Positions 2,734 through 9,718 of a stretch of DNA of 9,718 nt are shown piece after piece. Source of the DNA: a virus (taxonomy: Duplodnaviria; Heunggongvirae; Uroviricota; Caudoviricetes). The notes beneath the pieces are model-generated. The model was not told where the DNA came from, searched no databases, and saw only the letters and a list, made by a program, of their open reading frames with translations. A program made the translations under genes and the position numbers. The stretch lies in IMG/VR virus record IMGVR_UViG_2609459856_000010. One strand, given 5' to 3'. How positions within the stretch are numbered: position 1 is the stretch's first letter; every line of letters begins with the position of its first letter.

Positions 2734-5541
2734 TCAATCTTTATCGTAAAAACTGCCACGTCCGGCACGAGCACGCCGTTCCACCTCTGCCCTGACCATT
2801 TCACCGACCAGTTTCGCCAGTTCGCGGGGATTCTGCGTAACAACGTTATGCAGATGAACATGAATTTCACCACCAAATCCGGAGGCAACAGGCTCCCGGT
2901 TACGGGAAGTTACAGGAACTGATGCCACAGGAGATCGTATGGCCTCCGCCACCGGGCGGGAGCTGGCCGCAACAACAGGGACCAGCGCCGGAGGCAGCGG
3001 AGCCGGGACCACGGGGGTGATATTAATTGCGGGGGCAGGCTTACTGACCTGCGCAATCTTCCGCTCCTGCCACTCCCCACGAACAGCAAGTGCGCGGGGC
3101 AGGTTTTTAAAGACAATATCGCCGGGGCCAATGCGTTTTTTCGTCTCCTCAACCAGCTTACCTGTGTTATCAGCAATTTTGCTGAGTCTGCGCAGCGTAC
3201 CGGTATTGCTGTCTGTGAGCGGTTTGTTGTCTTTGGGGTTATCACCTCCGGTGCCATTGCCATTTTCTACAGGCTTCGGCGGATTGATTTTCGCCAGGTC
3301 CCCCTGAAGAAAGGCAACCTTGTCCTGAAGAATGGCCGCACGCTGTGCGTCTTCGATTTTCTTTCTCGCCCTTTCCGCTTCATCCGGAAGAACACCTAGT
3401 TTTTCAAGTATCCACGCCAGCGTATCCAGCAACATTTTTGCAGGTGTCAGAACAAGCTGTAACGCGCCACCAAGAACGTTACCGAATATCTCGCCAGCAC
3501 TGGTACATTTATCCAGCGTTTCCTTGCTGGACTCCATCGGTGACAGCAGCGATTTAAACCAGTTAAACACCTGGCTGATCCCGATTCCGATTGCGTCAAA
3601 AACAGGACCAAACCGTTCAAAGGTTTCGCGCAACGGGGTCAGCATTTCCATAATCCCGCTGAACACCCCGGCAAAAAATGCCCTGATGGGATCCCAGTAT
3701 TTCCAGATGAGAATGGCAGCTCCGGCAAGCGCAGCCACGATAAGACCAACCGGACTGAACAGCGCCCCGATAGCGCCTCCCAGCAAAGAAACAGAACCCG
3801 TCACCATTCCCCACAACGCAGGCAACACCCTGATGACATTCATTGACCGGGTAAGAATGTCAAAACCAAGACGCAGGGTGGCCAGCTTCCCGTAAAGCAC
3901 CCCAATAACCAGCGACAACGAGCCAATCGTTGCAGTCATTGCCAGCAACGCACCGCCTGCTATCAGTAGCTGGCGCGTCAGTACCGGATGGGCCTGCGCC
4001 AGCGAGGTGATTTTTTCAAGCACCCGCGTGAGCCACTGCGTGACAGAACGCAGCGGACCGTCAACCAGATCACTGATGCGAATACGAAGACCTTCCCATG
4101 CGCTGTCGAGATTTTTCAGGTCCCCATCAAGATTATCGGCCATTACTTTTGCAACGCGATCGGCCTCTCCCCTTGCCCCCTGCAATTCTCTGGTCAGTTT
4201 TTGCAGCTCTCCTGAACCAGCCGCCGCAACAAGCGTCTGCAAACCAACGAACGCCTCTTCTCCGGCGATGTCCTTGAAGAAGGAGACCTGGTCCACCTGT
4301 CCGTATTTTTGTGTCGCCTTATAGAGATCAAGCAGCACATCCTCCATCGGGCGCATTTTGCCTCTGGCGTCAGCAACTGACACCCCCAGCTCTTTCAGTG
4401 CATCAGCCGCAGCTTTTGGCGGTGATGCAAGGCGGGACAGACTTGCGCGCATGGCCGTGCCAGCATCGCTTCCGCGAAGACCATTATTGGCAAGCATCCC
4501 GGCCATGGCCGCCGCTTCTTCAAGACTGATACCAAGTTTTGCGGCAACCGGACCGGTATACTTCATGGTTTCGCCCAGCGCGCGTAAATCAGTATTGGTC
4601 CGGGTGAATGCCGCTGTCAGCGTATCGCCAACCCGGTCCATTTGATCGGCTGTCAGGTTGAACTGTGTGAGGATATTGGAGCCTATATCCGCCGTCTCGC
4701 CGAGTTCGACGCCACCTGCCAGCGCCATATTAAGAACACCGGGCAATGCGGCCTGAATGGCCTGCGGAGTAAAACCAGCCATTGCCAGAAAGCTCTGCCC
4801 ACTGGCGGCATCACTCGCAGTAAACTGTGTTTCAGAGCCAAGTTTTAACGCCTGCTCACGCAGCGCCTTAAACTGCGGGCTGTTTTTGTCGATTCGCGTC
4901 AGTGCCTGAACGCGGGACATCTCTTTGCCGAACCCGATCGCAGGCTGCAAAAAACGCCCGGCAGCATAGCCGCCCGCCGCTGCCGCACCAATTGCCAGCG
5001 CACCACCTGTTTTCAGTTTTCCCGCTGTTTCCTGCGCGCGCGAATACCGCTCACGCGCCCGCGTTACACGCGCAAGCGCCTGCCGTTCGCGTTCAAGCTG
5101 GTTGTTGTACTGTTCGGTGCGTCTGATGGCCTGCTGGATGGTGTTATCGCTACCTGTCAGGGAAATGCCGTGGCGTTTCAGCTCTCCGCCAAGTTCCCGC
5201 ATTTTCTGAATTTCCCGTGTGCGCGATTCATTCAGGCGTTCAAGCCGGGTGCTTAACTGCTGCATCAGCTTTTGTTGTTTTTCGCTGAGCACTGTACCCG
5301 TGCGTTGTAACTGATTAAGGGCGTTAAGCTGGCGTCGTGCTTTCACGATGCCCGCATCCGCTTTACTGACAGCGTCACGGGCGCGCTCAAATGAACGCGC
5401 CTGACGCTCGAGATTTTTGATCGCCCCCTGCGTTCGCTGGATGGAGTCACCAAACTGCCCCATCAGGCGGCGGGCGTTTTCGGCAGGCCGGGTCAGCCTG
5501 TCAACGGCGCTGAAAGCGACCCGGATATCAAGAGTCTTCAT
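2734..5541 (-). CDS. T: Tail tape measure protein (P2 gpT-like)
   Basis: About 935 aa. Charged, coiled-coil-like N-terminal region rich in R/Q/E, Gly/Ala-rich hydrophobic central segments, and a Pro/Val-rich C-terminal region. It sits between E/E' and U. Start is uncertain: GTG 5577, ATG 5550 or ATG 5541, the last having a GGGAA motif upstream. Confidence 0.9.
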   Translation of the reverse strand: MKTLDIRVAFSAVDRLTRPAENARRLMGQFGDSIQRTQGAIKNLERQARSFERARDAVSKADAGIVKARRQLNALNQLQRTGTVLSEKQQKLMQQLSTRLERLNESRTREIQKMRELGGELKRHGISLTGSDNTIQQAIRRTEQYNNQLERERQALARVTRARERYSRAQETAGKLKTGGALAIGAAAAGGYAAGRFLQPAIGFGKEMSRVQALTRIDKNSPQFKALREQALKLGSETQFTASDAASGQSFLAMAGFTPQAIQAALPGVLNMALAGGVELGETADIGSNILTQFNLTADQMDRVGDTLTAAFTRTNTDLRALGETMKYTGPVAAKLGISLEEAAAMAGMLANNGLRGSDAGTAMRASLSRLASPPKAAADALKELGVSVADARGKMRPMEDVLLDLYKATQKYGQVDQVSFFKDIAGEEAFVGLQTLVAAAGSGELQKLTRELQGARGEADRVAKVMADNLDGDLKNLDSAWEGLRIRISDLVDGPLRSVTQWLTRVLEKITSLAQAHPVLTRQLLIAGGALLAMTATIGSLSLVIGVLYGKLATLRLGFDILTRSMNVIRVLPALWGMVTGSVSLLGGAIGALFSPVGLIVAALAGAAILIWKYWDPIRAFFAGVFSGIMEMLTPLRETFERFGPVFDAIGIGISQVFNWFKSLLSPMESSKETLDKCTSAGEIFGNVLGGALQLVLTPAKMLLDTLAWILEKLGVLPDEAERARKKIEDAQRAAILQDKVAFLQGDLAKINPPKPVENGNGTGGDNPKDNKPLTDSNTGTLRRLSKIADNTGKLVEETKKRIGPGDIVFKNLPRALAVRGEWQERKIAQVSKPAPAINITPVVPAPLPPALVPVVAASSRPVAEAIRSPVASVPVTSRNREPVASGFGGEIHVHLHNVVTQNPRELAKLVGEMVRAEVERRARAGRGSFYDKD

Positions 5542-5794
5542 TGTCTGCATTCCCGCTGCGAAGTGCCGCCCGCTCACGCCAACTAACCACTTCGCCGGGC
5601 GTCATCATGAAGATTTCGGCGGGCGACCAGTTAAAAATGGCGGCGATATCTGCCACCAGATCTTCGATGTGCTCAAAGCACACCAAGGTGATTACGCTGC
5701 CGTCTCCTGCACGCTCTTCGCGCCAGAGTCTGGCTCGCTCATAAAATTTACAGCCACAGCGCACAACTGAATAAAATCGCGTGACGACATTTTT
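5528..5794 (-). CDS. E' extension: -1 frame segment producing the gpE+E' tail assembly chaperone fusion by programmed frameshift
   Basis: The -1 frame relative to E opens exactly inside the A7 run (the -1 frame TAA is at 5797-5795) and stays open to 5528, overlapping the start of T. This matches the E/E'/T arrangement of P2 as I recall it. Confidence 0.6.
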   Translation of the reverse strand, partial: KNVVTRFYSVVRCGCKFYERARLWREERAGDGSVITLVCFEHIEDLVADIAAIFNWSPAEIFMMTPGEVVSWRERAALRSGNADNEDS

Positions 5795-6066
5795 TTAATC
5801 ATCACTTCATCCAGTCGTGGCGAGGTCACGCGAGGCAACAGCGTGAACATGGTATCCGCTTTCAGATTCAGCACATCAGACAGCGACAGACCACGCAGGG
5901 ATCCAGCCTGTTCAATAGCCCCGGTGATCTCCACATACGTGATTTTTTCGCCACCACGCTCAATTGGTCGAGTCAGTTTTACGCCACGTTCGACAGCCAT
6001 ATCCTCACCTGCCGTCACATCATCCGCCACGGTGTTATTCCGGGTTTCAGTATCGATGTCTTTCAT
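5692..6066 (-). CDS. E: Tail assembly chaperone gpE (P2 E-like)
   Basis: 124-aa ORF between the tube and tape measure genes, with Shine-Dalgarno AAAGGAG upstream of the ATG at 6066. It contains the slippery run at codons 90-92 (I-K-K). Confidence 0.8.
   Translation of the reverse strand: MKDIDTETRNNTVADDVTAGEDMAVERGVKLTRPIERGGEKITYVEITGAIEQAGSLRGLSLSDVLNLKADTMFTLLPRVTSPRLDEVMIKKMSSRDFIQLCAVAVNFMSEPDSGAKSVQETAA
5790..5796 (-). promoter_or_regulatory. Candidate -1 ribosomal frameshift slippery run (A7 in mRNA sense) for E to E'
   Basis: The mRNA reads AUU AAA AAA AUG in the E frame. The overlapping -1 ORF becomes open at this run. Homopolymeric A runs are known slippery sequences. Confidence 0.5.
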
Positions 6067-7818: not shown

Positions 7819-7974
7819 AGCTTCAGCCCCTTGTATCCGTTAAATGATTCGGCAACAATCATCACCCACCACGCGCGTAATCTCCCCCCTGCGCCGTTCT
7901 CCCGCCACGGCGACAACAAAAAGCAGTAACCCCCTCCGCACGCACATGCGACCATGCTGCACAGGGAGGGAAAG

Positions 7975-9084
7975 ATGACCGACACCACCATGCAATTGCT
8001 CAGTCAGGGCACAGACCCCGTGAAAATGCCGGATTTTGATATTCTCGTGGAGGGGGAAACGCTGTCCGGCGTGGCAGAGCGCCTGATGAGCCTGTCACTG
8101 ACCGACAACCGGGGATTTGAAGCGGACCAGCTCACCATCACGCTGGATGATGCGGATGGTCAGTTGCAGCTACCGCCACGGGGCGCGCGCCTGACGGTTC
8201 TCATTGGCTGGAAAGGAGAACCGCTGACAGAAAAAGGCACTTACATTGTTGATGAAATTGCTCATGAAGGACCGCCCGACAGACTGACCATTTCAGCCAG
8301 AAGCGCAGATTTTCGGGATGAATTTAACGTCAAGCGCGAAGTATCCTGGCATGATGTGACCGTTGAACGCGTGGTGTCTGCAATTGCTCACCGATACGGC
8401 CTGAAACCGCAAATCAGCGAAATGCTGATGGATATTGAAATCGACCACGCCGACCAGACCGAAGAAAGCGACATGTCCTTCCTTACGCGCATGGCGGAAA
8501 TGCTGGGCGCAATCACCACGGTAAAAAGCGGCAATCTGTTATTCATCATGCCAGGTGGTGGCGTGAACGCACAGGGCCAGCCGTTGCCCTCGTTCGCCAT
8601 TACACGCAGCAGCGGCGATCGCCATCAGTTCCGTATTGCTGACCGCGAGGCGTATACGGGGGTACGCGCCTACTGGCTTGATCTTAATTACGGGAAAAAG
8701 AAAAAAGTCAGCGTAAAACGCCGTAAACCGCCAAAACCCAAAAAGGAGAAAAGCAGCAGCCGTGAAGGTGATTATATGGAAGGCGCGGAAGGCAATGTGT
8801 TTGTGTTACGCAAGACTTATCAGAACGAGCAGGCAGCAAGACGCGCAGCGGCGGCAAAGTGGCAGCAGCTACAACGCGGAGCCGCAGCGTTCTCCATCAC
8901 ACTGGCACGTGGACGCGCAGAACTCTACCCCGAAATGCATGGCACGGTAACAGGATTTAAAAGCGAGATTGATAATCAGGACTGGATTATTGCAAAAGCC
9001 GAGCACACCATTGATAACAGCGGCTTTACCACGCAGCTTGAGCTTGAGGCAAAAATCCCGGAATGGATAGCAGAAACAGACTGA
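7975..9084 (+). CDS. D: Phage late control / tail protein D (P2 gpD-like)
   Basis: 369 aa from the ATG at 7975, preceded by GGGAGGG; the ORF is open from 7954. Central lysine-rich stretch (KKKKVSVKRRKPPKPKKEK) and overall gpD-like sequence. Followed by ogr, as in P2. Confidence 0.85.
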   Translation: MTDTTMQLLSQGTDPVKMPDFDILVEGETLSGVAERLMSLSLTDNRGFEADQLTITLDDADGQLQLPPRGARLTVLIGWKGEPLTEKGTYIVDEIAHEGPPDRLTISARSADFRDEFNVKREVSWHDVTVERVVSAIAHRYGLKPQISEMLMDIEIDHADQTEESDMSFLTRMAEMLGAITTVKSGNLLFIMPGGGVNAQGQPLPSFAITRSSGDRHQFRIADREAYTGVRAYWLDLNYGKKKKVSVKRRKPPKPKKEKSSSREGDYMEGAEGNVFVLRKTYQNEQAARRAAAAKWQQLQRGAAAFSITLARGRAELYPEMHGTVTGFKSEIDNQDWIIAKAEHTIDNSGFTTQLELEAKIPEWIAETD

Positions 9085-9126
9085 GCAACTTAGAATAGCG
9101 GCAGCACCACGTTAAGGGAGGTCGCT

Positions 9127-9387
9127 ATGTTCCGTTGTCCGCTTTGTGGCGCATCTGCCCGTATCCGCACCAGTCGTCCGGAAAATGATTCAAACACCGT
9201 GCGGCAAAAGTATTACCAGTGTAACAACCTGGAATGCGGCGTATGCTTCTCAACACTGGAAGCTTTCCATAAATTCACATCGAAACACGCCTCCGGCGTT
9301 CACTCATCAGAAGGTATCCCGTGGCATGAGCTGCCAGCTTCACACAGGGGAAACAATCAGATGAGTTTGCCTTTATCTCAGAATTAA
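9127..9387 (+). CDS. ogr: Ogr/Delta-family zinc-finger late transcription activator
   Basis: 86 aa starting MFRCPLCGASARIRTSR, with Cys-X2-Cys ... Cys-X4-Cys (CPLC ... CNNLEC), characteristic of P2 Ogr. Shine-Dalgarno GGGAGG is 5 nt upstream. Confidence 0.85.
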   Translation: MFRCPLCGASARIRTSRPENDSNTVRQKYYQCNNLECGVCFSTLEAFHKFTSKHASGVHSSEGIPWHELPASHRGNNQMSLPLSQN

Positions 9388-9547
9388 CAGGCAGAATTGC
9401 CGGAGTAACAAAAAAGCGATAGATTACGCGCGGGTGCCTTTCGGCTGATGGTCGGAGGGAATACCCGAAGGCCAGATGTGGAAAGGCCCCGGAAAACATC
9501 TCTGTTTAACCGAGGCCCTAACCGCATTACCTTAGCAAGTGATAGGT

Positions 9548-9577
9548 TAGCGCCTCCCTGAAAAAGGAGCAAGCGCT
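9548..9577 (+). promoter_or_regulatory. Possible Shine-Dalgarno-sequestering hairpin in the hok-like leader
   Basis: AGCGC (9548-9552) can pair with GCGCT (9573-9577), and CTCC (9554-9557) with the GGAG of the Shine-Dalgarno (9566-9569), enclosing the ribosome binding site up to the ATG. By-eye prediction only. Confidence 0.25.
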
Positions 9578-9718
9578 ATGTCGCAAAAATCGCTTACGGC
9601 CATCACGTTCTGCGTGACGGCAATCCTCATCATCTGGATGCTGCACGGTTCGCTGTGCGAAATACGGATGAGCTTCTGGGGAGCGGAGTTTGCGGCGTTC
9701 TTACAGTGTAAGCAGTAA
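9578..9718 (+). CDS. Hok/Gef-family type I toxin (small membrane peptide), 46 aa
   Basis: ATG at 9578 with AAGGAG 8 nt upstream; the stop is at 9716-9718. Not in the supplied ORF track because it is short. Translation: MSQKSLTAITFCVTAILIIWMLHGSLCEIRMSFWGAEFAAFLQCKQ. It has an N-terminal transmembrane helix followed by SLCEIR-x6-E-x-AAF, which aligns with the conserved SLCEIRYRDGHREVAAF core of Hok as I recall it. Confidence 0.6.
   Translation: MSQKSLTAITFCVTAILIIWMLHGSLCEIRMSFWGAEFAAFLQCKQ

Follow-up and report, generated by a model that had tools for sequence, protein, structure and literature searches.

The closest characterised relative of the locus described here is hokW-sokW of the Shiga toxin (Stx) phage Sp5, a toxin-antitoxin system of type I in which HokW is toxic and sokW RNA, with 71 nucleotides (nt) complementary to the 5' untranslated region (UTR), counteracts HokW partly via RNase III and Hfq (Takada et al. 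2021, PMC8621323). From the native Sp5 locus HokW-3xFLAG appears once sokW RNA vanishes after prophage induction, and the system influences phage release (PMC8621323). Our locus lies at the end of a 9,718-nt stretch of Caudoviricetes DNA (IMG/VR record IMGVR_UViG_2609459856_000010), referred to here as the window, in which an initial annotation made from the letters alone had described a hok/sok-type leader with a 37-codon open reading frame (ORF) ahead of a hok-like toxin gene. Comparison with relatives makes it probable that positions 9397-9718 are a type I toxin-antitoxin module of the hokW/sokW type, which a P88-like (P2-family) prophage carries as cargo between its ogr gene and its end, and that the 37-codon ORF is a by-product, the module having no functional mok. 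The hok/sok-type assignment stands, and the module is a further case of the experimentally characterised hokW-sokW kind.

Over 307 nt the module has 82% nucleotide identity to hokW-sokW of the Stx phages 933W, Sp5/VT2-Sakai and 75/02, and BLAST homology with distant copies begins at about 9411, in the -10 region, and extends through hok to the 'fbi' element of the 3' UTR. Like the window, the Sp5 and 933W loci are prophage-borne and encode a 46-residue Hok with the same ends. The Sp5 leader also has the same parts, namely the 'tac' and 'ucb' elements, the Sok-target hairpin, a hairpin enclosing the Shine-Dalgarno (SD) sequence of hok and the promoter of the antisense sok gene, and it too is without a canonical mok. 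The setting differs: in Sp5 and 933W the module follows lom in a lambdoid phage, whereas here it follows ogr in a P2-family prophage. Sp5 furthermore carries another allele of the hypervariable segment that forms the Sok 5' tail and target loop (9524-9545), and its frame from the ATG equivalent to 9448 stops after 4 codons, whereas that of the window is open for 37.

With the R1 hok/mok/sok locus (parB) the window shares a Hok/Gef toxin, a leader alignment to the whole Rfam model, the tac/fbi and tac/ucb pairings, a GAGGC...GCCUC target hairpin with the Sok -10 box in its 3' arm, a Sok -35 box over the hok SD, and sequestration of that SD. In R1-type loci an ATG or TTG 7-9 nt after GAGG opens a mok frame of about 70 codons that overlaps hok, whereas the window has no start there. 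The leader is also shorter than that of R1 (146 against 174 nt). The hokA/mokA/sokA locus of the E. coli chromosome, intact in O157:H7, has the identical Sok -10 hexamer and the GAGGCCC motif, but has kept a canonical mokA, which the hokW clade is without.

The sole significant Rfam match in 9000-9718 is RF01794 ('sok'), found on the plus strand at 9432-9591 with 44.8 bits (E = 1e-8) and covering model positions 1-157, that is, the whole model. This does not reach the gathering score of 59; other hokW-clade loci score 35-51 bits and R1-type loci 89-110 bits. Although RF01794 is named 'sok antitoxin (CssrC)', it matches the sense strand up to and including the hok AUG and is therefore a model of the hok mRNA leader and not of Sok RNA. 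No member of the hokW clade is recovered when its gathering score is applied.

The hok-family toxin gene (9578-9718, plus strand, 46 residues) matches Pfam PF01848 (HOK_GEF) with 29.9 bits (cut-off 22, E = 4e-7) and PHROG 251 with E = 1e-22, while its best NCBIfam match, HokA (E = 2e-8), is below cut-off. Variable sites fall 5/5/18 on the three codon positions, and 95 of 96 relatives are free of indels; judged from this pattern, the coding sequence is under purifying selection.

Relatives were gathered with a pattern anchored in the hok coding region, which leaves the sample unbiased as to the leader. The 120 IMG/VR loci and 8 E. coli loci obtained gave 96 distinct 500-nt modules; 83 are distinct from the transcript start (+1) to the hok stop codon, and there are 68 distinct leaders, with 60-100% identity to the window. 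Comparisons of structure and of the Sok promoter used 45 aligned relatives. An RNAalifold consensus of all 45 was degraded by five outliers with recombinant 5' ends, and the window's own minimum free energy (MFE) structures were used instead, with slide and shuffle controls. As a positive control, the same scripts were applied to R1-like hok loci, of which 77 distinct ones were drawn from many genera of enterobacteria. For hokA, whose leader is split by IS150 in strain K-12, the intact O157 copy was used.

The segment 9432-9580 folds with -63.2 kcal/mol, compared with -44.2 +/- 3.8 for 200 shuffles (z = -4.98, 0/200 as good). In the aligned relatives paired cells make up 89%, a share that drops to about 42% once the partners are slid; doubly changed (compensatory) pairs number 26-31, against 9-24 in controls, and the covariation score is 0.16-0.18, against 0.04-0.08. 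That the leader is structured, as the initial annotation had it, is therefore confirmed by both z-score and covariation. It had also counted the whole 190-nt space between ogr and hok as leader, which is too long: the predicted mRNA leader comprises only 146 nt (9432-9577). Of the example of complementarity that it named, the two segments, GCCTTTCGG at 9436-9444 and CCGAAGG at 9465-9471, are indeed present, but their pairing has no comparative support, and the 5' end pairs with ucb or fbi.

This 5' end is the tac element (GGGUGCCUUUCGGCU, 9432-9446, plus strand), at which the RF01794 model starts. Its partner in the full-length fold is fbi (GUCGAAGUGGCACCC, plus strand), which lies in the 3' UTR beyond the window and was located at positions 3672-3686 of L001, a 100% identical chromosomal copy that served as the source of the 3' UTR. 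The tac/fbi helix (GGGUGCC with GGCACCC) has 15 base pairs (bp), is 87.7% paired and includes 4 compensatory pairs. In the truncated fold tac pairs with ucb (GGAAAGGCCCC, 9480-9490, plus strand); this helix, between 9432-9442 and 9480-9490, has 10 bp, is 94.8% paired with 2 compensatory pairs and is present in the MFE structure of the leader alone. In two relatives (L004 and L071) a recombinant 5' end (GGACGCC/GGACACC) is joined to a different Sok-target region, and the fbi partner (GTCACCC/GGCACCC) is no longer a full match; to judge from their sequences, these may be mosaic or inactive copies.

Further downstream, the Rfam alignment and the folds define the Sok-target hairpin (9512-9556, plus strand; GAGGC-CCUAACC...GGUUAG-C-GCCUC), which has a hypervariable apical part (9524-9545) and stems with 91% and 77% pairing. 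Its homologue in R1 is the hairpin bearing the SD and AUG of mok. The toxin SD, GGAG at 9566-9569, lies in a hairpin much as had been proposed for 9548-9577: a structure at 9548-9578 (plus strand; -12.8 kcal/mol when folded alone) pairs CUCC (9554-9557) with GGAG and UAGCGC (9548-9553) with GCGCUA (9573-9578). Its helices are 100% and 90% paired, with one-sided changes only. A switch by which Sok pairing would free GCGCCUCC (9550-9557) from GAGGC to clamp the hok SD was considered and is not supported. In partition-function folds the effect had the expected direction in 34 of 45 relatives and was negligible, the probability of an unpaired SD being about 0.20 for the full-length form, 0.21 for the truncated form and 0.20 for the truncated form with the Sok target masked. 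We also observed a helix of 13-15 bp, about 96% paired, between the hok start region (9578-9592, AUGUCGCAAAAAUCGC) and the coding region's 3' end (9685-9699, GAGUUUGCGGCGU). This helix may explain the near-invariant DNA of TTGCGGCGTTCTT and may lock the AUG as well as the SD.

On the minus strand, the predicted Sok promoter consists of a -35 box TTGCTC (9567-9572), which overlaps the hok SD, and a -10 box TAACCT (9544-9549), the hexamer shared with hokA. It is kept in all 45 relatives, with a spacer of 17 nt in 37 and 18 nt in 8. Variants of the -35 box are TTGCTC (30 relatives), TTGACT (6), TTGCCT (4), TTGTCT (3) and TTTACT (2), and those of the -10 box TAACCT (42), TAAGCT (2) and TATCCT (1). 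The predicted RNA (9478-9536, ends approximate, minus strand) would have a 17-nt 5' tail (9536-9520) and a GC-rich hairpin (9519-9484) followed by UUUCC, and folds with -24.9 kcal/mol (z = -3.6). An antisense RNA, which the initial annotation had listed among the things to be checked, is thus probably present here, judging by the conserved minus-strand promoter, and has been demonstrated experimentally for the Sp5 homologue (PMC8621323). The complement of the Sok -10 box forms a conserved in-frame TAG (9548-9550) upstream of hok; because this makes the TAG invariant and the -35 box covers the hok SD, the segment directly 5' of hok is under several overlapping constraints. The apex of the target hairpin, which is equivalent to the Sok 5' tail (9524-9545), is hypervariable, with discrete alleles shuffled among near-identical leaders. 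Since E. coli genomes carry up to 9 copies of the module, this may reflect diversification of specificity against cross-talk between Sok RNAs.

The promoter candidate that had been proposed for the toxin mRNA, with -35 TTGCCG (9397-9402, plus strand) and -10 TAGATT (9420-9425, plus strand) separated by a 17-bp spacer, has correct coordinates and a conserved position, 6 nt before the predicted +1. Relatives have TTGCCG, TTGCCC or TTGCGG as the -35 box and TAGATT, TAAATT, TACAGT, TACATT or TAGAAT, that is, a conserved TAnAnT, as the -10 box. The hexamers stay at a constant distance from the GGGTGCC 5' end despite unrelated upstream flanks, in copies located after lom, after gene J, near ykgM-like genes or after ogr, which suggests that they function as a promoter. 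A consensus promoter and terminator scan of 9000-9718 gave no site above threshold, these hexamers included, so that both the sense and the Sok promoter calls come from positional conservation only.

What the hokW clade does not share with the R1-like loci is the start of mok. The window has neither ATG nor GTG nor TTG at a distance of 4-12 nt from GAGG, where the position reads CCCTAACCGC; in the clade the homologous position reads GAGGCCCTAAC... and a canonical start occurs at this distance in 1 of 83 relatives, with none (0/83) reading through into hok. The R1-like control loci have such a start in 65 of 77 cases, all 65 reading into hok, and 75 of the 77 have some leader ORF that does so. 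Intact hokA has GAGG, 7 nt, an ATG at -60 and a 70-codon mokA. Near-cognate starts (CTG, ATT, ATC, ATA) follow GAGG in 55 of 83 relatives, but only 19 of 83 read through and their position is not conserved; the ATT at 9526 of the window was rejected with them in this clade-wide test. More generally, ATG, GTG or TTG leader ORFs that end 25 nt or less from the hok ATG, or beyond it, occur in 41 of 83 relatives where shuffles predict 79.7, so that leader ORFs reaching hok are not enriched and, if anything, are depleted. The ORF of the window starts 64 nt further upstream than the canonical mok start.

A second candidate start is the motif GAAGG-N4-AUGUG (9467-9480, plus strand; 74 of 83 relatives), in which an AUG at 9476 overlaps a GUG at 9478 that is in frame with the ORF from 9448. 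Of all leader sites it looks most like a place of initiation, but we rejected it as the true mok start: the ends of its ORFs scatter from -100 to +134 relative to the hok ATG and include AUG-UGA and AUG-UAA forms, and 41 of 74 reach the anti-SD/SD region where 35.8 are expected. In the Sp5 leader, from whose native locus toxin is made, the nearest ORF end is 28 nt from the hok ATG. The entire hokW-type lineage thus appears to lack a mok helper frame. We give roughly even weight to the stronger proposition that this lineage, the present locus included, is a naturally mok-less hok branch in which Hok synthesis is uncoupled from an upstream frame. No statement that mok is absent from the whole hokW lineage was found in the literature searched, a search that did not extend to Steif & Meyer 2012. 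A 2026 survey of Hok deliberately set Mok calling aside as difficult (bioRxiv 10.1101/2025.08.07.668861).

The 37-codon ORF itself is as the initial annotation described it, running on the plus strand from the ATG at 9448 to the TGA at 9559-9561, with the same peptide and an end 16 nt before the hok ATG at 9578. That text had left a choice between a variant mok architecture and a fortuitous frame, and comparison of the 83 relatives favours the latter. The frame is open to the hok SD in only 16 of them, all near-identical P88-like copies. In most other clades a T at 9466 creates ACC-TGA and closes it after 4-6 codons, and in L008 and L009 an ACG replaces the ATG. Position 9466 pairs with 9457, as G-C in 19 sequences, G-U in 16 and A-U in 8; because all three pairs occur, the frame-opening change from U to C is neutral for the structure. 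A C-to-T change in the loop of the SD hairpin at 9559 shortens the frame, and the resulting TGA is a rare local variant (window, L001, L020 and L057). Length across 9448-9561 varies by +/-1 nt in 17 of 49 sequences even among the P88-like copies, and in phage P88 itself indels of 1-2 nt shift the frame and no leader ORF comes near hok. Variable sites of the ORF fall 13/10/13 on the codon positions, that is, without codon periodicity, and an ATG-initiated ORF of at least 37 codons arises in 40% of dinucleotide-preserving shuffles of the leader. The ORF peptides have no family match in Pfam, NCBIfam or PHROGs, and a conserved open upstream ORF with a conserved start, as in leader-peptide regulators, was not found across the relatives. 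The AUG at 9448, at 16 nt from the 5' end, has no SD and is part of paired RNA in either conformer, with the region upstream of it 0.02-0.22 unpaired. On this comparative evidence the ORF is most likely accidental.

The best surviving alternative, which we consider unlikely, is that the leader ORF is a working, lineage-specific analogue of mok, starting at AUG 9448 or, more plausibly, at GUG 9478, with termination at 9559-9561 melting the SD hairpin and Sok blocking the frame, all without overlap with the hok start. Several observations weigh on its side and against a module without mok. The function of mok is independent of its peptide, which makes the absence of codon periodicity weak evidence. 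The probability of an unpaired SD is about 0.2 in all states modelled for the 45 relatives; because the stable SD hairpin is predicted to be closed in each of them, something must open it, and in R1 this is done by the ribosome that translates mok. The ORF of the window, like its in-frame version from GUG 9478 with GAAGG as SD, ends 4 nt before GGAG and therefore extends far enough to open the hairpin, so that in the window it might be of incidental help; in R1 translation of mok is required only as far as the hok SD (Le Rhun et al. 2022, PMC9841398). In relatives with CGA or CGG at 9559 the frame crosses hok in the -1 register and is 70 or 87 codons long; in 15 close relatives it overlaps hok in this way, like R1 mok. 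Finally, the frame lies inside the Sok-complementary region, the GAAGG-AUGUG motif is widely conserved, and truncation is predicted to raise the unpaired fraction of its AUG from 0.03, the full-length value, to 0.64. Set against these points, the ORF ends are scattered from either start, the fraction reaching the SD region is that expected from shuffles, indels of 1-2 nt are tolerated, and AUG 9448 is buried in paired RNA with no SD of its own. Moreover, Sp5 hokW is translated natively without any ORF ending less than 28 nt from the hok ATG.

In the mechanism with the best support the module works through the refolding of hok mRNA. Its structural elements and promoters are shown by the comparison of relatives; the transcript ends, the mRNA processing and the RNase III step we infer from R1 (PMC9841398) and Sp5 (PMC8621323). 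A promoter that is weak and constitutive (-35 at 9397, -10 at 9420) would give a hok mRNA starting at about 9432. The full-length mRNA would be locked as long as tac (9432-9446) was paired with fbi, which lies some 340 nt further downstream in the 3' UTR, beyond the window, until 3' trimming allowed tac to switch to ucb (9480-9490) and exposed the target hairpin (9512-9556). Sok, about 57-71 nt long and transcribed from its promoter inside the leader, would then pair with about 9478-9536, which would bring about cleavage by RNase III and stop toxin synthesis, with the hok SD held in its stable local hairpin. If the branch is naturally mok-less, there is no coupling frame and Sok binds at least 30 nt upstream of an SD that is constitutively held in a hairpin. 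Sok would then need a different way of acting, for example through duplex-directed RNase III decay, through occlusion of a ribosome standby site in the target loop, or through a refolding that is not resolvable thermodynamically. Ribosome standby control is the principle of tisB/istR-1, in which the toxin initiation region is locked in structure, the antisense RNA binds well upstream and no ORF provides coupling. Here, too, the antisense RNA would bind well upstream, 30 nt or more from the SD, but there is no sequence relationship between the two systems and the hok family is otherwise mok-dependent; a standby-site mechanism for the window is only an analogy.

It is far less probable that the module is a decaying, non-functional hok relic, like several hok loci of K-12, with the leader ORF and the loss of mok as signs of erosion. 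Such decay does occur, as the IS150 insertion in K-12 hokA shows, and the lack of a canonical mok and an Rfam score below the gathering threshold would fit it. However, the hok coding sequence is under purifying selection; the promoters, tac, ucb and fbi and the Sok promoter are conserved, with compensatory changes; and 1750 of 5426 E. coli genomes carry the module, frequently in several copies. Its Sp5 homologue is toxic, regulated by sokW and affects phage release (PMC8621323). The notion that the leader is some other cis-regulatory RNA, such as a riboswitch, a thermosensor or an attenuator with a leader peptide, that controls the toxin or reads through from ogr, could appeal to the high structure z-score and to the ORF beside hairpins, but has hardly any probability left, given that the hok leader is the only significant Rfam match, the structure corresponds element by element to the hok mRNA paradigm, the leader peptide is not conserved and 9000-9718 contains no terminator-like site.

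For annotation, the 190-nt gap after ogr is to be read as holding, in complete form, a hokW-type promoter and leader of hok together with the antisense sok gene, and the 37-codon frame warrants annotation neither as a gene nor as 'mok'. A mok start is strongly conserved in R1-like loci and in hokA and absent in the hokW clade, even though the Sp5 member is experimentally active, and this contrast offers a concrete, testable case for mok-independent control of Hok, a modest variant of a 30-year-old paradigm. If a mok-less branch is real, the three-gene hok/mok/sok logic is not obligatory in the family, and the branch occurs in about one third of the complete genomes of E. coli, as well as in many phages of the P2-like and Stx kinds. 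Database labels obscure the distinction: what is called 'MokW-like host killing' (PHROG 251), and in O157 strains 'MokW' or 'HokW' (51 residues), is the ORF of the Hok toxin and not a mok frame, and we flag the labels 'MokW' and 'MokW-like' as denoting the toxin itself. The 51-residue form appears to have been lengthened upstream by five codons, to the preceding in-frame stop. Under the name 'MokW' (51 residues) it was among the most highly transcribed genes by RNA-seq in strain Xuzhou21 (PMC3667801).

The end of the window corresponds to the tail and late-control region of a P2-family prophage, with gpD at 7954-9084 and ogr at 9127-9387, and its final base is the last one of the stop codon of hok. 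The ogr-to-hok segment of 619 bp occurs with at least 95% identity in more than 1,100 complete E. coli genomes, while P88 and other phages of Xuanwuvirus have it at about 97% identity. In L001 the region 3' of hok (3755-5189) encodes a TM2-domain protein, a Com-family regulator and a DNA methyltransferase, followed by the host genes raiA and bamD; hok/sok is the first unit of this prophage-end cargo ('moron') region. Like the window, many predicted prophage contigs (among them L018, L019, L053, L054 and L067) stop precisely at the hok stop codon and have lost the 3' UTR with fbi and the terminator (3672-3725 of L001), so that prophage-boundary callers seem to truncate the module. Two viral contigs carry tandem hokW-type modules with different Sok-target alleles, at 4318-4676 and 5040-5399 of L031 and at 5545-5902 and 6000-6362 of L110.

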